From Hyphomonadaceae bacterium (GTDB taxonomy: Bacteria > Pseudomonadota > Alphaproteobacteria > Caulobacterales > Aquidulcibacteraceae), in the NCBI GenBank assembly GCA_009773395.1, contig WRPI01000007.1, positions 118,326 through 182,325 of the forward strand: DNA of 64,000 bases. The letters are read 5' to 3'. The translations under genes were made by a program, and so were the position numbers. Under the pieces are notes generated by a model that worked only from the letters and a program-made list of their open reading frames with translations, did not search any database and was not told the origin of the DNA. Shown one piece after another: positions 9,548 through 59,069 of the stretch. Every line of letters starts with the position of its first letter. Position 1 is the first letter of the stretch.

Positions 9548-10486
9548 ATGATCGAGTTGGAAGAAAATTTATTGCTCGGATCCGATGATATCGCTTTTGG
9601 CTTTGGCTTGGAGGAAACGTCAATTCGTGGGCAAATTGTGCGGTTGGGGCCAGCCACCGCCGATGAAATTATTTCGCGTCACAATCTTCATCCTATTGTC
9701 TCTTCGATTTTAGGTGAATTATTAGCGCTGGTCTCCATTTGCGGCGCTTCTTTGAAATTTGATGGTAAATTGATTGCGGAAATACGCGGTGATATTGGTA
9801 ACCCTGACCTTCCAATTGAGTTTATTGTCGCCGAATATTTGACCGGCGGCACAATGCGCGGCATGGCCAAAACTAATGAAAAAGCGCTCGAAAAATTGCT
9901 CATCGGCAATTCAAAACCGAGTTTGCACTCGCTTTTTGGCAATGGCATTTTCCTAATTACTATTGACCAAGGCAAAAGCCGCGATCGATACCAAGGCCAA
10001 GTCCCGCTTGAAGGCGCAAGCCTAAGTGAAGTTGCGAGCCGCTATTTTGAACAATCCGAACAAATTCCGACCAAAATAATGCTCGCAAGCGCACAAGAAC
10101 AAGACGGCCATAGCCATGAGGAATGGCGCGCTTGCGGCATTATGGTCCAAAGAATTGGCCGCGATGATGGGCGCGAACAAAGCGACGATATTTGGGACGA
10201 AGTAGTATCTAAATTTGAAACTCTGACTTTTGAAGAATTAATCGAACCAAGCATTAGCGCGGGCGAATTATTATTCAGGCTTTACCACGAAAACAATGTG
10301 GTTAGCTATGAGCCGAAATTACTCGCGGCGAAATGCAATTGTTCACACAAGCGCCTTGTAGATATTATGCGCGGCTTCCCCAAAGAAGACACTGAAGAAA
10401 TGATGGAAAATGACGGACAAATTCACGCCCGCTGCGAATATTGCAACACCAGCTATAAAATCAGCCCGAAGGAGTTTAGGTCTTAA
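9548..10486 (+). CDS. hslO: Hsp33 redox-regulated chaperone
   Basis: [18 protein letters not shown], and C-terminal zinc motif CNC...CEYC. Confidence 0.93.
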
Positions 10487-49996: not shown

Positions 49997-51289
49997 CTAA
50001 TTCCCGAACTTATGAACCCAACTAATAGTTGCCTCAAACTGGTGCATGTTTAGTTCAATAGTCTGCGATGGGTTTGGCCCCATTGGCGTAACTTCAATGC
50101 CGCGCACTTTTGTTTCAGGTGCATACATGAATGCCGCTTCAATCGCATTGCCATTGCCCATATCATGCGCAAAGCCGCCAGTTAAATGCAGTTCAACCAC
50201 ACCCGGTGCCAATATGTTCAAAGTAACATCTTCTGGGCCAATTGGGTTATTATTGGACGAAATGCCCGCGCGCCATGTCCATGCATCTGAGGCTTTATAT
50301 TCCATGCCAAATTTAACTGTATCGACATCGTCCCAACCAAAGCCCGGGCCATTGGCTGCACCAAATGGCAATGGCGTCTGCCCCGAATTGCCCACCGAAT
50401 TAACATCGGAATAGGAAATATGGCGATAGCCGAGCATCAAAGTCAGATTATCACTGGCATCCATCGCAAGGCCCAAGGAATAATTAGCAGGAATGTCAAA
50501 ATCGCCATGATCGGCAAAAAGCCCAGCATATGCATCAAATTCCGACATGTTAATCTTGGGCTGGAATACAGCGCCAATGCGGAAATTATCGCTTAAAGCG
50601 ATTTCTGCACCGAGGCGAACCCCAAAGCCAGACGACCAATCATAATTGCGATTAGTCATATTTGCAGGGCTCGAAGAAACGCCGGCAAATGCGCCAAGAC
50701 CCGAAGCCTTGAACGCCTGCAACACATAAGTTGGTGAAATCCCAATTGAAATTTGGTCATTCAAACGACGAGCATAAGTGCCCGATACATAAAGTTGATT
50801 GAGACTGACACCTGATTTACCACCGCAAAAAACGCCTGAACATGGAAAACCAACATTGCGCGGAAATACATCACCATAGGTGGTGTTCATGCCACCGTTG
50901 CCATAAGCGGCCAGCGAAATTGCCGAACTTGCGTCTAATTGGCGAACATAACCAAATGCCGGCACTGGGAAATAATCCTGCCCACTTGTGACTTCACCAT
51001 TTGGCGTAAATGCCCCAGCCATAGGCGCGGTTGTGCCAGTAAAGCCGCGTTTGGGGCTGAATAATGAAACCCCAATTTCAAGGACATCGCCTGCGCCCAA
51101 AATACCAGCAGGATTATTGGCAGATGCCAGTGCATTATGCGCATTGGCAACATCGGCGCCAGCAAGCGCTTTGGATGCCGCACCAACGCCATTCATAAAA
51201 TAGCCCTCAGTGGCAAAGGCAGGTGTGCCAGCGCCGACACCAATTAAGAGCGCCACCAAAGATATAGTCTTTATACTGATTTTTTTCAT
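49997..51289 (-). CDS. OmpP1/FadL/TodX-family outer-membrane channel
   Basis: Signal peptide, hatch region ALAGADVA...NNPAGI, beta-barrel strands, aromatic C-terminus (ISWVHKF). Confidence 0.88.
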   Translation of the reverse strand: MKKISIKTISLVALLIGVGAGTPAFATEGYFMNGVGAASKALAGADVANAHNALASANNPAGILGAGDVLEIGVSLFSPKRGFTGTTAPMAGAFTPNGEVTSGQDYFPVPAFGYVRQLDASSAISLAAYGNGGMNTTYGDVFPRNVGFPCSGVFCGGKSGVSLNQLYVSGTYARRLNDQISIGISPTYVLQAFKASGLGAFAGVSSSPANMTNRNYDWSSGFGVRLGAEIALSDNFRIGAVFQPKINMSEFDAYAGLFADHGDFDIPANYSLGLAMDASDNLTLMLGYRHISYSDVNSVGNSGQTPLPFGAANGPGFGWDDVDTVKFGMEYKASDAWTWRAGISSNNNPIGPEDVTLNILAPGVVELHLTGGFAHDMGNGNAIEAAFMYAPETKVRGIEVTPMGPNPSQTIELNMHQFEATISWVHKFGN

Positions 51290-51334: not shown

Positions 51335-51562
51335 TTAGCTCACTTTTTTTATTATGAAACTTAGGACATTCCCCTCTTGAGAATGTGACACCAATTCATT
51401 GCCTGTGGTTCTGCAAAATGCCTCAAAATCCTTTTGCGCAGCAGGGTCAGTTGCAAGAACTTCCGCGGTTTGCCCGTCTTCAAGTCCTTTAAGTGCTTTC
51501 TTCGCGTGTAAAATCGGCAATGGGCAGTTTAAGCCTTTGCAATCGACTAATACGTCAGCCAT
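51335..51562 (-). CDS. tusA: Sulfurtransferase TusA
   Basis: DCKGLNCPLP motif, LATDPAAQKDFEAFC. Confidence 0.95.
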   Translation of the reverse strand: MADVLVDCKGLNCPLPILHAKKALKGLEDGQTAEVLATDPAAQKDFEAFCRTTGNELVSHSQEGNVLSFIIKKVS

Positions 51563-51590: not shown

Positions 51591-52076
51591 TTAGATGTAT
51601 AAATTGATGTCAGATTTAAGCGCGTTTTCGAGCCAAGTCGCTGCGCCGCCATATTCAATGCTATCGAGCATATTGGCGCGATCATAATCAAATAAATCCA
51701 TAGTCATTTGGCACGCGATCATATTGACATCAGACAAAATCGCCGCCTCGCGCAAATCCTCGATGGAGGCGACGCCTTTCTTCTTAATCATGTCTTTCAT
51801 CATCATTGTGGTAAGGCCAGTCATGCCGGGAATCATGCCCATCATATTTGGCATTTTCATATGGCCGCCCATCATTGGCATTTCCATTGCCGAATTACCC
51901 AAAGTAGTTACGCTTAAGTCAAGCTCCTTTTTGAGCAAGCCCAAGCCATAAAAAGTGAAAAACATATTGACTTGGACATCCATTGCCGCAGCAGTTGTCG
52001 CCAAAATAAACGGCGGATAGGCCCAATCGAGCGTGCCTTTGGTTACAATAATTGTCATTGACTTAGCATTTGCCAT
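51591..52076 (-). CDS. dsrE2: DsrE2-type (DsrE/DsrF/DrsH-like) sulfurtransferase
   Basis: KGTLDWAYPPFILATTAAAM...FFTFYGL...MIACQMTMDLF...GGAAT. Confidence 0.9.
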   Translation of the reverse strand: MANAKSMTIIVTKGTLDWAYPPFILATTAAAMDVQVNMFFTFYGLGLLKKELDLSVTTLGNSAMEMPMMGGHMKMPNMMGMIPGMTGLTTMMMKDMIKKKGVASIEDLREAAILSDVNMIACQMTMDLFDYDRANMLDSIEYGGAATWLENALKSDINLYI

Positions 52077-52151
52077 TATGGGCCTCCCTTTGGTATCGCG
52101 GAATTGTCAGAAATACCGCAATCTTAGCTTTTTCTAATTTACCTTATCATA

Positions 52152-52167
52152 ATTAACTAATACAAAT
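52152..52167. promoter_or_regulatory. Candidate sulfur-regulon operator (ATTA-N8-RAAT) between dsrE2 and the deacylase
   Basis: ATTA-ACTAATAC-AAAT. Confidence 0.45.
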
Positions 52168-52217
52168 GAACAAGTGGGTATTTTAACTTTTCGCACAAGG
52201 CCATATTTGAGGACAAT

Positions 52218-53315
52218 TTGAGCAAAGCAATTTTCATTACCAACCCAATTTTCGCCAGTGATGCATGGGGAAATAATCACCCATTGGCGATTTCACGGCA
52301 AAGAAGTTTGCTCGATTTTTGTTCGGCGCTTGGCTGGACGAGTTCGCAGAATATGGCGATTTGTGACTTCGCATCGCTTAATCAATTATCGCAATTTCAT
52401 AGCGAAGAATATATTTTGGCGTTCCAAAAGGCATCGCGGGATTTGAAAATTGATGCCGCCGGGCGCGCAGAATTCAGCATTGGCACTTTGGAAAACCCTT
52501 TATTTGACAAGGTTTTTGAACGTGCAAGCGCCAGCGTTGGCGGCTCAATTCTGGCGGCCGAAATTGCGCTTGGCGGCAAAGTGGCGTTTCACCCCGCTGG
52601 CGGCACTCATCATGGACGCAAAGACAAAGCGAGCGGATTTTGCTATTTCAATGATCCAGTTTTTGCGATTTTGACTTTGTTAGAAGCGGGGCTTAGCCGC
52701 GTGCTTTATGTCGATATTGATGCCCATCATGGCGATGGCGTGGAACTGGCTTTCAAAGCGGATAAAAGGGTGCATATGGTATCTCTGCACGAAGAAAACC
52801 GCTGGCCCAATAGCGGGGCATTGAAAGACAATTGCGCACAAATTTGTAATTTACCCTTGCCAAAAGCCATAAATGATTCGGAATATGCAATTCTGATTGA
52901 CGCGATATGTGAAAAATACGTGGATTTTGACGCGCAAGCGATTGTCATTGTCGCGGGCGCTGATTGCCTCAAAGGCGACCCGCTTTCAACAATGGCGCTT
53001 TCCAATTTGGGGTTTGTGTCGGCAATTGAGAAATTATTGAAACTTGCGCCAGTGAAAATTGTATTGGGTGGCGGCGGCTATAATCCCTGGACGGTGACAA
53101 GAGCCTGGGCGCTTATTTGGGGACGCTTGGCGGGATTTGAAATTCCACTCGCCTTGCCGCCATCTGCGCGAGACGTTTTGAGTGGCCTTGAATGTGATTT
53201 AATTGACGAGGAAGATATATTACCCGAATGGCGTGATTCCATTCAGGACAAAGGCAATGCGGGCGAAATCCGCGATGAAATTAATATCCTCGTTGGCTCG
53301 CTATCAAAATTTTGA
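52218..53315 (+). CDS. Zn-dependent deacylase, histone deacetylase/AcuC family
   Basis: GGTHHG, SGFCYFND, YVDIDAHHGDGVE, SLHE, GAD...DPL, GGGGYNP. TTG start after GAGG. Confidence 0.93.
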   Translation: MSKAIFITNPIFASDAWGNNHPLAISRQRSLLDFCSALGWTSSQNMAICDFASLNQLSQFHSEEYILAFQKASRDLKIDAAGRAEFSIGTLENPLFDKVFERASASVGGSILAAEIALGGKVAFHPAGGTHHGRKDKASGFCYFNDPVFAILTLLEAGLSRVLYVDIDAHHGDGVELAFKADKRVHMVSLHEENRWPNSGALKDNCAQICNLPLPKAINDSEYAILIDAICEKYVDFDAQAIVIVAGADCLKGDPLSTMALSNLGFVSAIEKLLKLAPVKIVLGGGGYNPWTVTRAWALIWGRLAGFEIPLALPPSARDVLSGLECDLIDEEDILPEWRDSIQDKGNAGEIRDEINILVGSLSKF

Positions 53316-53351
53316 TTTGCATCTTGACAATTTGGCGTTAAATATAAGAAT

Positions 53352-53367
53352 ATTAGCAAATACAAAT
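53352..53367. promoter_or_regulatory. Candidate sulfur-regulon operator upstream of lipS1
   Basis: ATTA-GCAAATAC-AAAT, between a TTGACA hexamer (53328) and the GGAGG RBS. Confidence 0.5.
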
Positions 53368-53382
53368 ACTCGGAGGAAAAAA

Positions 53383-54417
53383 GTGAATTGGTTTTCACAG
53401 CTCGCAAATATTGAAGCTTTTGAAGATGCAGAATTTGACGCAGCTTTGGTAGCGCGGATGCAAGCTGCTGCGCCGCAAAATCAAAGCCGCGAATTACGTT
53501 TTTCAAGCCCAACTTTCAAAGAATATGAAACTTCGGAGCTTTCTGGCTGCAATAAAAATTCATTTCCAGCGTTTTCGATAACTGCGGCGGGGTGTGCGCT
53601 TAATTGCGATCATTGCCAAAAGAAAATCCTTGAACCTATGATTCCCGCCACCAATCCCGAAATGTTGGATAGGAAAGTACGCGATTTAATAATGCTGCAA
53701 AACCTCCAAGGGTTTTTGCTCTCAGGTGGATCCAACAAGCGCAATGAAATTAAATACGAAAGATTTTACCCGGTCGTCGAAAAATTAAAACACGACTTTC
53801 CGCATTTGAAAATAGCGATTCACACCGCTTTGACCGATGAAAAAGGCGCGAAAGCAATGGAATCGGCCGGGGTTGATACCGCCATGATGGACGTTATTGG
53901 CGCGCAAGAAACCATAAACCAAGTTTATCATTTGGACCGTACTGTTGATGATTTCGAGGCCACTTTGGCGGCATTGTGTGCGACTTCCATGGATATCGTT
54001 CCGCATATTGTGATTGGCCTACATTATGGCAAATTATTGGGCGAAAAGCACGCACTTGATATGGTTGCGCGTCACAATGTTAATAGCCTGGTTTTGGTAG
54101 TCATAATGCCGTTTTATGCCAAGACTGGCACTTTCATAACCCCGACAACTGGCGACGTTGGCGAAATTTTCCTTGAAGCCCGCACAAGATTGATGGACAA
54201 AAAAGTCCTTTTGGGCTGCGCGCGGCCCGCAGGATTGCACAAACGTGTCACCGATGCCTATGCAGTTATGGCTGGGCTTGATGGCATTGCTTTCCCGGCT
54301 GAAGGCGCAGTTAAAGTCGCGCAAATGGTCGGACGCAAATTTGAGCAGGCTCATTCTTGTTGTTCCATCAAAATTGGTGGCGGGGCAATCGAAGCCAAAA
54401 GGAGCTGTGCAGCGTGA
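53383..54417 (+). CDS. lipS1: Radical SAM protein LipS1 (lipoate assembly, sulfur-oxidizer type)
   Basis: CALNCDHC, LLSGGS, VPHIVIGL, C-terminal LGCARP and CC. GTG start 53383 after GGAGG. Position matches the known lipS1-lipT-lipS2-lpl-lipX order. Confidence 0.85.
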   Translation: MNWFSQLANIEAFEDAEFDAALVARMQAAAPQNQSRELRFSSPTFKEYETSELSGCNKNSFPAFSITAAGCALNCDHCQKKILEPMIPATNPEMLDRKVRDLIMLQNLQGFLLSGGSNKRNEIKYERFYPVVEKLKHDFPHLKIAIHTALTDEKGAKAMESAGVDTAMMDVIGAQETINQVYHLDRTVDDFEATLAALCATSMDIVPHIVIGLHYGKLLGEKHALDMVARHNVNSLVLVVIMPFYAKTGTFITPTTGDVGEIFLEARTRLMDKKVLLGCARPAGLHKRVTDAYAVMAGLDGIAFPAEGAVKVAQMVGRKFEQAHSCCSIKIGGGAIEAKRSCAA

Positions 54418-55523
54418 TTGCCGATATTTGCATAGTCGGGCTAGGGCCAGCGGGCGCAGAGGCTGCGAGAATTTGTGCAGGGGCGGGGCTATCCGTAATT
54501 GCTGTCGAGCGCAAAAAACAAGCTGGGCTTCCAGTGCAATGCGCGGAATTTGTGCCATCATTATTAAGCAGTGAAACCCTCGAAGCATTTCACAATAGCG
54601 TTCAATTGATAGATGATATGGTGACTTTCGTCGAAAATGATGCGCCCCACAACCGCGAAACATTTTCGGGCCGTATGATTGACCGCGCCAAATTTGACGC
54701 GGCACTTGTTGCCAATGCCAGACGGGCGGGCGCGAATATTATTTTGGGTGAAAATGTGGTTGAAATTTCAAAAAATGGTGAAATTTCTTTGGCGAATGGG
54801 CAAAAAATCCAAGCCAAAATCATCATTGGCGCCGATGGCCCACATTCGATTATTGGGCAAGCAATTGGGCAAATCAACCGCGAATGCCTCGAAACAAGGC
54901 AAATCACCGTTGAACTGAAAAACCCGCAAACTTCCACCGATATTTATTTATCACATAAATATAAGGGCGGTTATGCTTGGGTGTTCCCCAAGGGCAAAAT
55001 TGCCAATATTGGGCTTGGGCTGCACCAATCACAAAAATCCAAATTAAAGCCACTGCTTGAAGAATTGTGGGAACAATTGCGTGAACAATCATATGTCGGC
55101 AGTGAGATTATGGCAACTACTGGCGGCGCGATTCCAGTTGGCGGCATGTTGCGTCCCTTTGGACATTTAGGTGAAGTTTTGGTTTTATTGGCGGGAGACG
55201 CGGCAGGCCTAACCAACCCAATAACGGGCGCTGGCATTCCTGCTGCTGTGGTTTCAGGGGTATTGGCTGGGCAAGCTGCGATTGCTTCGCTCAAAGGCGA
55301 TGAATCTGCCGCAACCAATTATGAAGAGGAATTAGAAGACCTTTTTGGCACTTCATTGCACAGAGCCCGACGCCATTATTTACGGCTTTTGGCAATCCAT
55401 GAAAATGGCGGCAAACCAAATAAACTAGACTTAAAAAAGGCCTGGATTGCTTTCCCGGAATATTGGGAAAATCAAAAAAATATGAACGAGATTGGACAAG
55501 AACATGACTTGCTTGAAGCCTGA
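54414..55523 (+). CDS. lipT: FAD-dependent oxidoreductase, geranylgeranyl-reductase-like (LipT)
   Basis: VGLGPAG, PVQCAEFVP, IGADGPHS, YAWVFPKG, GDAAGLTNPITGAGI. GTG start overlaps the lipS1 TGA. Confidence 0.85.
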   Translation: MIADICIVGLGPAGAEAARICAGAGLSVIAVERKKQAGLPVQCAEFVPSLLSSETLEAFHNSVQLIDDMVTFVENDAPHNRETFSGRMIDRAKFDAALVANARRAGANIILGENVVEISKNGEISLANGQKIQAKIIIGADGPHSIIGQAIGQINRECLETRQITVELKNPQTSTDIYLSHKYKGGYAWVFPKGKIANIGLGLHQSQKSKLKPLLEELWEQLREQSYVGSEIMATTGGAIPVGGMLRPFGHLGEVLVLLAGDAAGLTNPITGAGIPAAVVSGVLAGQAAIASLKGDESAATNYEEELEDLFGTSLHRARRHYLRLLAIHENGGKPNKLDLKKAWIAFPEYWENQKNMNEIGQEHDLLEA

Positions 55524-56790
55524 AGCTGCGATTCCGCGCGCAACAACAAACAGCGAAAAGGACTATAATAGCCTTGACGTAATGAACCCGCGCGCACCCA
55601 TGCCGACACCCAAAGAATTGCGAAATGGCGGCCAAGTTAAAGCCAATGCCATTGCGCCGCGCGGCCTTTATCGACCCAATAATAATATTTTGACACCGCA
55701 AATGACTTCTCCCGAATATGTCCAATTATCAACTGCTGCCGCTTTGACCATGGGGCTGATGGACGGAAAAATGCACCGCTGCGAATGCACACGCTGCCTA
55801 AACATTCTTTTGACTTACCCTGAAGGATGCCGCGCCAATTGCGCTTATTGCGGCCTTGCCCGTCATCGTGAAGCCGAGCGCGATTATGCAGATCGCAATT
55901 TTATTCGCGTCGATTGGCCCGCCGTGCCGATGGAGCAAATCGCCGAAACTGTCGGACGCGACGCCGCCGCCAGCCCGTTTCACCGCATGTGCATATCCAT
56001 GATAACCCATCCGCGTTCCGATGAAGACACCATAACAGTGCTTAAAACTTGGACCAAATATGTTGACCCTGACGCAATGCCAATTTCAATTTTATCAAAC
56101 CCGACCACAATGGAGCGCAAAGACGTGCAAATGTTGCGTGATTTGGGATCGGATATATTCACTGTAGCGCTTGATGCCGCAACACCATTAATTTTTGACA
56201 AAACTCGGGGTAAAGGCGTGCAATCGCCGCATTCATGGCAAAAATATTGGGAAATTCTTGAAGACGCAAAAGACATATTCGGGCCGAAAAAATTTGGCGC
56301 ACACATAATTGTCGGTATGGGCGAAACTGAGTTTGAGATTTTATCGCTAATTCAGCAAATCGTCGATATGGGCGGTCATAGCCATTTATTCTGTTTTTAC
56401 CCTGAAAAAGGCTCATTGATGGATCACTTGCCAGCCACCCCAAGAGATCAATGGCGGCGCGTGCAATTGGCAAGATATATGATTGATTATTGCGGCGTTC
56501 GGGTTGAACAAATGGGTTTTGACAATGAAGGGCGTGTGATATCATACGGTCTGTCACAAGCCGAAGTTGAGATGACCATCAATAGTGGTATTGCATTTCG
56601 CACTTCAGGTTGCCCGGGCAAATTTGCAGACGATATTTCAGCTTGTGATAGGCCATATGGCGATAGCCCGCCATCAAATATTGCGAGCTATCCATTTGCG
56701 CCCGAAGCCAAGGATTTGCGCTTAATCCGCACACAATTGAATATGGAAAATCCTTTGGATCCCTATATTGAGGGCGAAGAACTTGAATAG
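55492..56790 (+). CDS. lipS2: Radical SAM protein LipS2
   Basis: GCRANCAYCGL, RMCISM, VALDAAT, FRTSGCPG...ACDRPYG. Start may be 55504. Confidence 0.85.
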   Translation: MDKNMTCLKPEAAIPRATTNSEKDYNSLDVMNPRAPMPTPKELRNGGQVKANAIAPRGLYRPNNNILTPQMTSPEYVQLSTAAALTMGLMDGKMHRCECTRCLNILLTYPEGCRANCAYCGLARHREAERDYADRNFIRVDWPAVPMEQIAETVGRDAAASPFHRMCISMITHPRSDEDTITVLKTWTKYVDPDAMPISILSNPTTMERKDVQMLRDLGSDIFTVALDAATPLIFDKTRGKGVQSPHSWQKYWEILEDAKDIFGPKKFGAHIIVGMGETEFEILSLIQQIVDMGGHSHLFCFYPEKGSLMDHLPATPRDQWRRVQLARYMIDYCGVRVEQMGFDNEGRVISYGLSQAEVEMTINSGIAFRTSGCPGKFADDISACDRPYGDSPPSNIASYPFAPEAKDLRLIRTQLNMENPLDPYIEGEELE

Positions 56791-57853
56791 GCCACTGCGT
56801 GTCATCGACACTGGCCTTTTGCAAGGGCGCATGAATATTGCGATTGATGCGGCAATGTTGGAATTGCGGCAGGCTGATATTATCGGCGATAGTTTGCGCT
56901 TTATTCATTTCGAGGCAACCGCACTGGTTGGACGCCATCAGGCACTTCATCAAGAAATCAAGGTGGATCATTGCAAAGCCAATGGGGTAGGAATTGGTCG
57001 CCGTGTAACTGGCGGCGGGGCGATTTATCTTGACCCAAAGCAATTAGGTTGGGCTTTAATATTAAAGCGCAATTCGCTTGCCGTGCAGGGCTTAGGCGAA
57101 ATTACCAAAGCAATATGCGAAGCGGCAGCTTTTGGGCTCTCAAAATTGGGAATTGATGCCCGCTTCAGGCCGCGCAATGATATTGAAGTTGCGGGGAAAA
57201 AAATTTCGGGCACAGGCGGTTTTTTTGACGGCGATGTTTTGATGTATCAAGGGACGGTACTGATTGACCTTAATCCAAGCGATATGGTGGCCGCATTAAA
57301 TATGCCGATTGCCAAAGCATCGCGTGAAGGCGAAACCGATCAAGCGGCGCGCGTTACAACCCTTAAACAGCTATTGGGGCAAGCTCCCACTCATGTTGAA
57401 GTGATAGCAGCCTTGACGCAAGGATTTGCCGAGAAGTTAAATTTTTTACCAAACCATGAACCGCCCTCCCCCGAAGAATTGGCATTGGCGCAAAAATTAT
57501 ACGCGGAAGAAATCGGCACTGATGAGTTTGTTTATGAAATTGACGAACCTTGGCGCGAAGCTGGTATTGGCATCGGAACTTGTAAATCGGCTGGCGGTGC
57601 GGTTACCGCTTATTTGCGCAAAGATGGGCCCAAAAATTCAACAATCCGCGAAGTGATTTTCGTCGGTGATTTTTTTGTTGCTCCGCCAAGATTGGTTTAT
57701 GATCTTGAAGCCCATTTAAGGGGCACGAAAATTGATAACATAGCGCAAGCCATAAATGAATTTTTCGCAATTTCTGGCAATCAGGGGCTTTTATCAATAA
57801 CAGCGGATAATTTTATTGAAGCGCTCACAAACGCCGCGGAAAACCAAAACTAA
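56783..57853 (+). CDS. Lipoate:protein ligase, sLpl(AB) type
   Basis: GRHQ, RRVTGGGAIY, NDIEVAGKKISGTG, QGTVL, and a C-terminal accessory domain with GDFF. Confidence 0.92.
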   Translation: MNRPLRVIDTGLLQGRMNIAIDAAMLELRQADIIGDSLRFIHFEATALVGRHQALHQEIKVDHCKANGVGIGRRVTGGGAIYLDPKQLGWALILKRNSLAVQGLGEITKAICEAAAFGLSKLGIDARFRPRNDIEVAGKKISGTGGFFDGDVLMYQGTVLIDLNPSDMVAALNMPIAKASREGETDQAARVTTLKQLLGQAPTHVEVIAALTQGFAEKLNFLPNHEPPSPEELALAQKLYAEEIGTDEFVYEIDEPWREAGIGIGTCKSAGGAVTAYLRKDGPKNSTIREVIFVGDFFVAPPRLVYDLEAHLRGTKIDNIAQAINEFFAISGNQGLLSITADNFIEALTNAAENQN

Positions 57854-58548
57854 TGAAAACCATAAACGTAATTCAGCATACATCGGCGGATTATTTGGGT
57901 CTGCTTGAAGACCATTTAGAGGGGCGTAAAATTGGCTTTTCTTATTGCCGCCCATTTGCCGAAGGCGCAACTTTGCCGCGCTTAAGTGATGTCAAAGACG
58001 GCATAATGTTTTTGGGAGGTGGGCCATGGGGCACTGCGGGGGTACGCGATATTCCAAGTCTCAAAAAAGAAATTGAGCTGTGCCGACATTGCCTTTTGGC
58101 CAATAAAATTATCATTGGCATTGGCGCAGGCGCACAAATATTGGCAATTGCTGCGGGTGGCGCGTCCGTGGCCAGCCCACTTGAATTTACTACAGGCATT
58201 GGAAGCCGCGTGCAAGGCGACGCACTTAACGGCTATCTCGATGCCAGTTTTCCATATGTGCTTTATGGCCGCGATTGGCCAGTGCCGCCCGATTATGCAC
58301 AGGTTTTGGCAATTGATGAAACTGGCCGCACGCTGGCATTTCAATTGGGCGAAACCGCGTTTGGCTTTGTGTTTCACCCTGGGATGAAATTAGCGATGGC
58401 CGAGGATTTGATTATGGAATTTGATGAAATCCCAACCGAGACCGCGCCGCAATTATTAAACCTTCAAAACATGAAGCGCGAAATCGAAGACAATTTGGTT
58501 AGGTTTATGACGGGCCTAATTCAAAAAACTGGCTTGATGCGCCATTAG
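57853..58548 (+). CDS. lipX: Class I glutamine-amidotransferase-like protein (LipX), triad degenerate
   Basis: GATase fold cues (LGGGP, GIGAGAQ, FVFHPG); sits between the ligase and dsrE3 as in described sHdr clusters. Confidence 0.75.
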   Translation: MKTINVIQHTSADYLGLLEDHLEGRKIGFSYCRPFAEGATLPRLSDVKDGIMFLGGGPWGTAGVRDIPSLKKEIELCRHCLLANKIIIGIGAGAQILAIAAGGASVASPLEFTTGIGSRVQGDALNGYLDASFPYVLYGRDWPVPPDYAQVLAIDETGRTLAFQLGETAFGFVFHPGMKLAMAEDLIMEFDEIPTETAPQLLNLQNMKREIEDNLVRFMTGLIQKTGLMRH

Positions 58549-58688: not shown

Positions 58689-59069
58689 ATGGCATCAAAG
58701 CTAATAATAGTTATGGCGAATACTGACCCGAAAAACGGCGAAGAATTGGGCGCGCCATTTTTTCAAGCCACAGTTGCCGCCGCAATGGATTACGAAGTTG
58801 AAGTAATTTGCACTGCAACATCGGGTATATTGATGAAAAAAGGCGTTGCTGAAAATCTTTTCGTAAAACCCGGTTCACCAAAATCAGTTTATGAATTTAT
58901 CAAAGACGCGCATGGCGCTGGCGTGAAATTTAGTTGCTGCTCACCAAATTTGGATTTGTTTGAAATGGGCGTTGAAGACCTCATTCCTGAATGTTCAGGG
59001 ATTGTTGGCGGCGCTTATTTGATTGAAGAAATCATGGAAAATGATGACGCAAGGGTGCTTACTTATTAA
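58689..59069 (+). CDS. dsrE3: DsrE3-type sulfurtransferase
   Basis: GAPFFQATVAAAMDYEVEV...GVKFSCCSP...GIVGGA; directly precedes shdrC1. Confidence 0.88.
   Translation: MASKLIIVMANTDPKNGEELGAPFFQATVAAAMDYEVEVICTATSGILMKKGVAENLFVKPGSPKSVYEFIKDAHGAGVKFSCCSPNLDLFEMGVEDLIPECSGIVGGAYLIEEIMENDDARVLTY

Follow-up and report, generated by a model that had tools for sequence, protein, structure and literature searches.

Why should a gene for a zinc-dependent deacylase head the genes that assemble lipoate on LbpA? The question is raised by a 64,000-nucleotide stretch of contig WRPI01000007.1 from a Hyphomonadaceae bacterium (assembly GCA_009773395.1), called the window throughout, in which a gene of family PF00850 precedes lipS1. 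The sLpl(AB)-LipS1/S2 route of lipoylation was recognised in bacteria only in 2023 (PMC10332631), and its accessory genes lipT, lipX and lipY are still poorly understood. A first-pass annotation of the window had proposed that the deacylase edits or recycles octanoyl- or lipoyl-lysine on LbpA, as a new class of lipoamidase and an extra step in the pathway. We find that the gene represents a distinct subclade and is an accessory part of the sLpl(AB)-LipS1/LipS2 module that lipoylates LbpA: a specialised variant in a known family, and an accessory gene not previously reported for this recently recognised pathway. Which protein it acts on, and which acyl group it removes, we infer in the later sections.

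Conserved neighbourhood across relatives

The deacylase gene lies directly upstream of lipS1 and in the same direction, as first claimed, with lipS1 beginning 67 nt downstream. The arrangement recurs in the 80 most similar deacylase loci of 185,579 species genomes, which were searched with every protein of the window's cluster. The gene immediately 3' of the deacylase gene is lipS1 in 67 of these loci; lipS2 is found in 60 and slpl(AB) in 56, and in every locus with enough flanking sequence the shdr genes come next. The estimated distance from deacylase stop to lipS1 start is 0 nt or less in 19 of the 67 loci and 1-100 nt in a further 37. The lip cluster of one locus (L062) is rearranged yet adjacent to the deacylase gene. 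In four loci only the dsrE2/tusA side is kept; the contig runs out in one of these, as it does in one further locus. Carriers include Hyphomonadaceae, Robiginitomaculaceae, Sphingomonadaceae, Rhodobacter, Rhizobiaceae and Parvularculaceae among the Alphaproteobacteria; Casimicrobiaceae, Usitatibacter and other Burkholderiales among the Betaproteobacteria; and Woeseiaceae, Steroidobacteraceae, Lysobacterales and Acidiferrobacteraceae among the Gammaproteobacteria. Rhodobacter sp. SW2 (L051) and Ostreiculturibacter nitratireducens FR2A1 (L030) are among the carriers in culture.

Some of the loci show local departures from this order. Where the gap between the deacylase gene and lipS1 is larger, it may hold a gene for a YeeE/YedE (SoxT-like) membrane protein, as in the related loci L120 (8932-9990) and L121, or an insertion element with its transposase, as in L017. 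In three Robiginitomaculum loci (L011, L031, L044) the deacylase gene still stands opposite a divergent fadL-tusA-dsrE2, and a different contig of each genome carries lipS1; the split of the cluster left the deacylase gene on the sulfur-carrier side. Loci labelled Candidatus Levyibacteriota (L069), Methylomirabilis (L135) and Enterobacteriaceae (L133) have typical proteobacterial shdr/lip clusters, and their contigs are probably mis-binned; the deacylase of L069 nests among those of Casimicrobiaceae.

Phylogeny and co-occurrence with LipS1

A tree of 101 rows contains one clade of 79 (Shimodaira-Hasegawa-like approximate likelihood ratio test, SH-aLRT, 100), made up of 69 lip-linked genes, four that are dsrE/tusA-linked, one at a contig end and five unlinked. 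All 22 other unlinked alphaproteobacterial AcuC-like genes fall outside it. The linkage label changes 8 times on this tree, versus 27.4 times in shuffles. A careful tree search rooted with HDLP recovers the clade whole (ultrafast bootstrap, UFBoot, 99; SH-aLRT 91), and the clade spans Alpha-, Beta- and Gammaproteobacteria within the proteobacterial AcuC-like family. Linkage of the clade to lip/shdr clusters, which had been proposed as a check on the first-pass annotation, is strong and clade-specific, judged by the 67 of 80 loci and by the support for the clade.

Co-occurrence was followed in an even draw of 401 genomes of the same class, with AcuC-like homologues counted at E <= 1e-40. Such homologues occur in 69 genomes and LipS1 in nine. 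The five best homologues (48-50% identity) all come from LipS1-positive genomes; four share a contig with lipS1, at a distance of 0.3-1.4 kb, and the assembly that contains the fifth is fragmented. Homologues at the level of the clade are found in 5 of 8 LipS1-positive versus 0 of 392 LipS1-negative genomes (Fisher p ~7e-10), the five representing three genera only. For tree building 20 lower-scoring loci were fetched; of the loci from LipS1-negative genomes only the 18 fetched, the five best-scoring included, were put on the tree. An even sample across the phylum is too sparse for an estimate of carriage (4 positives in 400 genomes), and a second set, seeded with a distant LipS1, was used; two more LipS1-positive genomes of the phylum sample have the deacylase gene directly upstream of lipS1.

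Among clade members without an adjacent lipS1, seven of eight have LipS1 elsewhere in the genome, and LipS1 is absent from the two outgroup Ruegeria genomes checked. Genome G369 has two copies, one lip-linked and the other a separate gene of the general AcuC-like kind. Since linkage to lip/shdr genes is strong and specific to the clade, the general idea behind the first-pass annotation, that an acyl-lysine hydrolase belongs to the LbpA lipoylation module, is well supported.

The neighbours of the five unlinked clade members share no theme, apart from one ArsR-type regulator. In that locus (L060) the deacylase gene starts 4 nt after the regulator gene (9575-9997), whose product shares 38% identity with the one that the genome studied here encodes after lbpA.

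Family, fold and active site

The deacylase open reading frame (ORF) is complete, from a TTG start to a TGA stop. The TTG start is kept because beginning at the next in-frame methionine (M46) would remove the conserved N-terminal HPLAxxR segment. The product matches positions 1-295 of the 298 in the PF00850 profile (E 3.9e-61; 207 bits versus a curated cut-off of 27.9); no NCBIfam model matches it. Alignment to Aquifex HDLP, human HDAC8 and 74 homologues finds the full catalytic set, namely the His131-His132 dyad, the charge-relay residues Asp166 and Asp173, and Tyr288 within GGGGY, along with the zinc ligands Asp168, His170 and Asp249 and the further conserved residues Gly140-Phe141-Cys142, Arg27 and Pro22. 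The catalytic and zinc-binding residues are invariant in 51 of 51 clade members.

An AlphaFold2 model (predicted local distance difference test, pLDDT, 96.4; predicted template modelling score, pTM, 0.95) has the central parallel sheet and alpha/beta fold of the classical HDACs. Its top Foldseek match is HDLP 1C3R (template modelling score, TM, 0.95; root-mean-square deviation 1.7 A), followed by HDAC8, HDAC2 and Rpd3, with TM 0.82-0.87 to HDAC8 and HDAC2. The 60 best sequence matches and 50 best fold matches in the PDB are all HDLP or class I HDACs (HDAC8, HDAC1/2, Rpd3, Clr6), and no acetylpolyamine amidohydrolase is among them. The foot-pocket motifs AGGTHH and GGGGY place the protein in the class I/AcuC-HDLP branch, cluster 2, which has XGG-x-HH and (G/A)GGY instead of RPP and EGGY (Graf et al. 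2024, PMC11532494); both GGGGY and XGG-x-HH are common property of class I HDACs and AcuC and do not set this gene apart. The description of an HDAC/AcuC-family gene with intact HH dyad, zinc ligands and catalytic tyrosine therefore holds in the family match, the alignments and the model. Judged by sequence and model, the gene product is an N6-acyl-lysine amidohydrolase of the class-I HDAC/HDLP/AcuC type that depends on Zn2+ and is competent for catalysis.

Two cluster architectures

Clusters of the kind seen in the window (type A) have the order deacylase-lipS1-lipT-lipS2-slpl(AB)-lipX-dsrE3-shdr...lbpA. A second kind (type B) has the order tusA-dsrE2-shdr-lbpA-lipS1-slpl(AB)-lipT-lipS2-fadL, and was sampled as 80 loci (L122-L201) from the search seeded with a distant LipS1, including Thioalkalivibrio, Acidithiobacillus, Sulfuriferula and Thermithiobacillus. 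A deacylase homologue is missing from 77 of these 80 clusters, and lipX is found in none of the 80. HDAC homologues of the remaining three loci lie about 4 kb beyond the cluster (37-41% identity) and were classed as AcuC-like genes of the general kind, present there incidentally. In a Hyphomicrobium-like cluster (L117), lipX is present and the deacylase gene absent. Because these clusters do without the gene, the pathway does not need the deacylase, and the proposal that it adds a step to the pathway has to be given up in so far as the step would be obligatory. The gene is an accessory of one architecture, not universal among sHdr systems, and this may be why the literature is silent about it.

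Clade-specific residues and candidate substrates

Glu92, at the rim of the active site, aligns with Asp101 of HDAC8, whose carboxylate we take to grip the backbone of peptide substrates. It is invariant in the clade (51/51), and Gly or variable in the unlinked alphaproteobacterial outgroup. Other near-invariant, clade-specific positions are Thr90, Gly98, Ala103 (Pro in all outgroup members), His125, Phe149, Thr245, Gly253 (as in HDAC1 and HDAC8), Thr292, Cys326 and Leu328. The segment 326-333, C-D-L-(V/I)-D-(E/D)-(E/D)-(D/E), is acidic in the clade and basic in the outgroup. We also considered AGG-T-HH and GGGGY as a clade-specific sign of long-chain preference and rejected them; the unlinked outgroup has both, so the foot-pocket motifs are a trait of the family.

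The foot pocket of cluster-2 AcuC enzymes takes acyl chains of various lengths, and of the peptides tested on B. subtilis AcuC, one with octanoyl-lysine was hydrolysed best, the natural site of this enzyme in AcsA being RSGK(ac) (Graf et al. 2024, PMC11532494). The ESGK acceptor motif of LbpA resembles the AcsA site, and no other [ST]GK occurs in the lip gene products or sulfur carriers of the cluster (sHdrA and the Mrp P-loop have one too). Covariation of the LbpA acceptor motif with presence of the deacylase was looked for and rejected, ESGKW(V/A)G being universal.

The one other candidate hydrolase of the module is LipX, in the literature a putative glutamine amidotransferase. Class I amidotransferases carry their nucleophile Cys in the motif G-x-C-x-G-x-Q. 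LipX has G-I-G-(L/A)-G-A-Q, with Gly or Ala at the Cys position in all 45 homologues checked (L001-L121), and by its sequence is probably not a glutaminase or hydrolase. As LipX lacks the nucleophile, hydrolase activity within the module is predicted for the deacylase alone.

Our best reading, tentatively held, is that the enzyme is an LbpA-directed deacylase that clears the acceptor lysine for reloading by sLpl(AB). The acylated acceptor lysine of LbpA, on the exposed hairpin I-E-S-G-K-W-V-G-P, would enter the active-site tunnel, with Glu92 at the rim holding the substrate backbone. The amide would be hydrolysed by Zn2+ (D168, H170, D249), the H131/H132 dyad and Tyr288, while the acyl chain would be housed in the open foot pocket (AGG-T-HH / GGGGY). 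Groups that are wrong, unfinished, damaged or blocking would be stripped in this way, whether acetyl, non-C8 acyl, or an octanoyl or lipoyl group that is beyond completion or has ceased to be needed, and the freed lysine would go back to sLpl(AB) for reloading. Such a role would be one of cofactor editing or recycling, not of core biosynthesis. Lipoamidase/de-octanoylase activity on LbpA, amounting to a new lipoamidase class, is plausible on this analysis; that the clade consists of dedicated Zn-dependent HDAC-fold lipoamidases/de-octanoylases editing the LbpA cofactor is possible but doubtful.

Several observations weigh against an LbpA-directed deacylase. The gene is missing from nearly all type B clusters and from the Hyphomicrobium-like cluster that has lipX. 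LbpA has the same ESGKW(V/A)G motif with and without the deacylase gene, and the foot-pocket motifs are family-wide rather than clade-specific. A promoter-like site stands between the deacylase gene and lipS1. Finally, the deacylase gene is the sole PF00850 gene of a genome that is 99.9% complete, in which no sirtuin/SIR2 homologue is found, so its product could double as a general deacetylase.

This last point leads to the idea of a general protein lysine deacetylase that merely stands beside the lip genes, the link being regulatory (the same sulfur-responsive promoter region) and not mechanistic. The separate promoter-like element 5' of lipS1 agrees with it, as do the five unlinked clade members, one of them behind the ArsR-type regulator described above. 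Against it stand the clade-specific synteny over three classes with stop/start overlap in 19 loci, the absence of the clade from the LipS1-negative genomes of the class sample, the clade-specific invariant residues, such as those of the CDL(V/I)DEED patch, and the separate general AcuC-like paralogue of one genome. We regard this explanation as improbable. A small-molecule or polyamine deacetylase with no tie to protein lipoylation is highly improbable: PF00850 does hold acetylpolyamine and small-molecule amidohydrolases (PMC11532494), but the structures that the enzyme most resembles are those of HDLP and of class I protein deacetylases, not polyamine deacetylases, the peptide-binding carboxylate is conserved, and the conserved lip synteny would be left unexplained.

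Two other explanations keep the enzyme within the module. It may be a regulatory or repair deacetylase of a pathway enzyme, taking acetyl or self-inflicted octanoyl groups off a lysine of sLpl(AB), LipS1/LipS2 or sHdr. The module would be kept active in this way, much as AcuC reactivates acetyl-CoA synthetase. The synteny fits this equally well as it fits action on LbpA; slpl(AB), encoding an acyl-adenylate-forming ligase, is kept in 56 of the 80 loci, and the one physiological substrate known for AcuC-family enzymes is a catalytic lysine, that of an adenylate-forming enzyme (PMC11532494, PMC13121692). We nevertheless think it unlikely, in view of the lack of a [ST]GK motif in sLpl(AB), the lack of any AcuA- or Pat-type acetyltransferase among the annotated genes around the cluster, and the type B clusters that run the same ligase without the deacylase. 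Alternatively, the enzyme may supply precursor to sLpl(AB) by freeing octanoate or lipoate from LipB-made octanoyl-GcvH/E2 or from small amides (lipoyl-lysine, lipoamide, imported acyl-amides). Robbing essential lipoyl proteins to feed LbpA would be costly, fadL is kept in type B clusters from which the deacylase is absent, and the invariant Glu92 and conserved rim favour a defined peptide substrate over small amides. These points make precursor supply rather improbable, even though the sLpl(AB)/LipS pathway begins from free octanoic acid (PMC10332631), AcuC-type pockets accept octanoyl (PMC11532494), LipB and a canonical GcvH are encoded in the genome, and the neighbouring genes include one for a FadL-type channel, both in the window and in 27 of the 80 related loci.

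Layout of the gene cluster

The features of the cluster within the window are collected in Table 1. Also on the upstream, divergent side are genes for a PF03601 membrane protein and an Mrp/NUBPL ATPase. The cluster continues past the end of the window (positions 64017-66166 in extended window numbering) with shdrB2, a 138-aa ORF, lbpA and a gene for an ArsR-type regulator. The lbpA product has 146 aa and the acceptor motif IESGKWVGP, and the regulator (114 aa) is encoded directly after it.

Table 1. Coordinates of the deacylase gene, its flanking sites and the genes around it (window numbering)
Feature	Position	Strand	Remarks
FadL/TodX-type outer-membrane channel, lipY-like	49997..51289	-	basis includes PMC10332631
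tusA	51335..51562	-
dsrE2-type sulfur carrier	51591..52076	-	divergent from deacylase gene
dsrE2-deacylase divergent intergenic region	52077..52217	.	141 nt; one ATTA-N8-AAAT copy at 52152
Shine-Dalgarno-like GAGGA	52209..52213	+	4 nt 5' of TTG start; read off sequence
Zn-dependent deacylase gene (PF00850, class-I/AcuC/HDLP-like)	52218..53315	+	365 aa; H131, H132, D166, D168, H170, D173, D249, Y288, rim E92
Spacer, deacylase stop to lipS1 start	53316..53382	+	67 nt; GGAGG 5' of GTG 53383
Promoter-like TTGACA-16-AAGAAT	53324-53351		in deacylase-lipS1 spacer
ATTA-N8-AAAT	53352-53367		in deacylase-lipS1 spacer
lipS1, radical-SAM lipoyl synthase subunit	53383..54417	+	NF053742, E 1e-55; start inferred from homologues
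lipT, geranylgeranyl-reductase-like FAD oxidoreductase	54357..55523	+
lipS2, radical-SAM lipoyl synthase subunit	55492..56790	+	NF053743, E 1e-55
slpl(AB), lipoate/octanoate:protein ligase	56768..57853	+
lipX, class-I glutamine-amidotransferase-like	57853..58548	+	elbow GIGAGAQ, without nucleophile Cys
dsrE3-type sulfur carrier	58689..59069	+
shdrC1-B1-A-H-C2	59121..63959	+

An apparent overlap of the deacylase gene with a lipS1 ORF beginning at 53203 is an artefact of taking the longest ORF; homologues put the start at GTG 53383. No terminator-like site is found in the 67-nt spacer between the two genes, and their co-transcription in this genome is possible. The first-pass annotation had also given them a shared candidate operator. 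Copies of the motif ATTA-N8-RAAT do stand at 52152 and 53352, but over the window as a whole it is not enriched, with 15 copies observed versus 13.1 +/- 3.6 by chance. Each of the four spacers in the lip/shdr region holds a copy (52152, 53352, 58576 and 59075), on the + strand every time; given the number of copies in the window against the number expected, the motif as written is too loose to serve as evidence.

Farther downstream (66521-70902 in the same extended numbering) are genes for a SorA-like molybdoenzyme with a cytochrome c subunit (sorAB-like), form II RuBisCO and a LysR/CbbR regulator. The source organism, Hyphomonadaceae-like and small (2.6 Mb), looks like a sulfur-oxidising autotroph.

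Comparison with known systems

Among known systems the best match in both sequence and fold is HDLP of Aquifex aeolicus (PDB 1C3P/1C3R/1C3S; phmmer E 6e-63 over residues 16-356, 33% identity). The two proteins agree in their catalytic residues, in the ENP motif at the rim and in the acidic character of a C-terminal segment; HDLP differs in having Met130 where the deacylase family has Thr130. HDLP was considered as a lip-linked member and rejected: 14 Aquificaceae loci are without lip/shdr genes within 10 kb, and HDLP, used as an outgroup, lies outside the clade. We know of no physiological substrate of HDLP.

The unlinked proteobacterial AcuC-like genes resemble the deacylase gene in length, in their AGGTHH and GGGGY motifs and at 38-45% identity. 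They fall outside the clade and differ from it in having Gly or a variable residue at position 92, Pro103 versus the Ala of the clade, and a basic segment at 326-333. They also have a conserved neighbourhood of their own (loci L082-L101), with a divergent NMT1/THI5-type ABC transporter upstream and a gene for a secreted DUF192 protein directly 3' in 9 of 22 loci (ORF calls fuse DUF192 with the deacylase frame in three more), and it would therefore appear that the two groups do different things.

AcuC of B. subtilis (sub-cluster 2c) is likewise a class-I-like Zn deacylase with XGG-x-HH and GGGY foot-pocket motifs (PMC11532494). It is dedicated to a single protein substrate, deacetylating Lys549 of AcsA, and is encoded in acuABC beside acsA. 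The deacylase studied here has dsrE2/tusA and lip/shdr as neighbours, without acuA, acuB or acsA, and so is not an AcuC in the strict sense. The long-chain Zn deacylases human HDAC8, HDAC11 and HdaH of Vibrio cholerae (5b) share the fold and chemistry and house the acyl chain in an enlarged foot pocket with a Gly-rich xGGY lining (PMC11532494), but HDAC11 and VcHdaH belong elsewhere (class IV / cluster 5) and none of the three is known to be tied to lipoate metabolism.

The gene set and order around the deacylase are those of the model clusters of the sLpl(AB)-LipS1/LipS2 pathway with LipT, LipX and LipY, in which the sLpl(AB) ligase uses free octanoate and LipS1/S2 insert sulfur (Tanabe et al. 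2023, PMC10332631). No deacetylase, HDAC or AcuC is named in the text, component list or supplements of that paper, whose shdr-lip cluster of Hyphomicrobium denitrificans is presented with no gene of this kind. A 2026 preprint dealing with the specificity of the ligase is equally silent on deacetylases, and in the searchable literature we found no paper linking sHdr, LbpA or lipS to HDAC, AcuC or a deacetylase. A conserved and intact deacylase at the head of the operon would imply that attachment of the LbpA cofactor is reversible or proof-read, and would assign a physiological function to one branch of the bacterial AcuC/HDLP family, for which hardly any substrates are known.

Lpa of E. faecalis, one of the known lipoamidases, is a member of the Ser-Ser-Lys amidase signature family. 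Lpa, CobB, SIRT4 and SIRT2 catalyse the reaction proposed here, removal of lipoyl or octanoyl groups from lysine (PMC5596343). In fold and mechanism they differ from the deacylase, the known enzymes being NAD+-dependent sirtuins or Lpa, and our literature search found no report of a lipoamidase with the Zn-HDAC fold. Were octanoyl- or lipoyl-LbpA the true substrate, the deacylase would be the first member of the classical HDAC family to act physiologically on lipoyl- or octanoyl-lysine. Lipoate assembly would gain a new component for quality control, and the lipoamidases a third class, different in mechanism from both the sirtuins and the amidase-signature enzyme Lpa.

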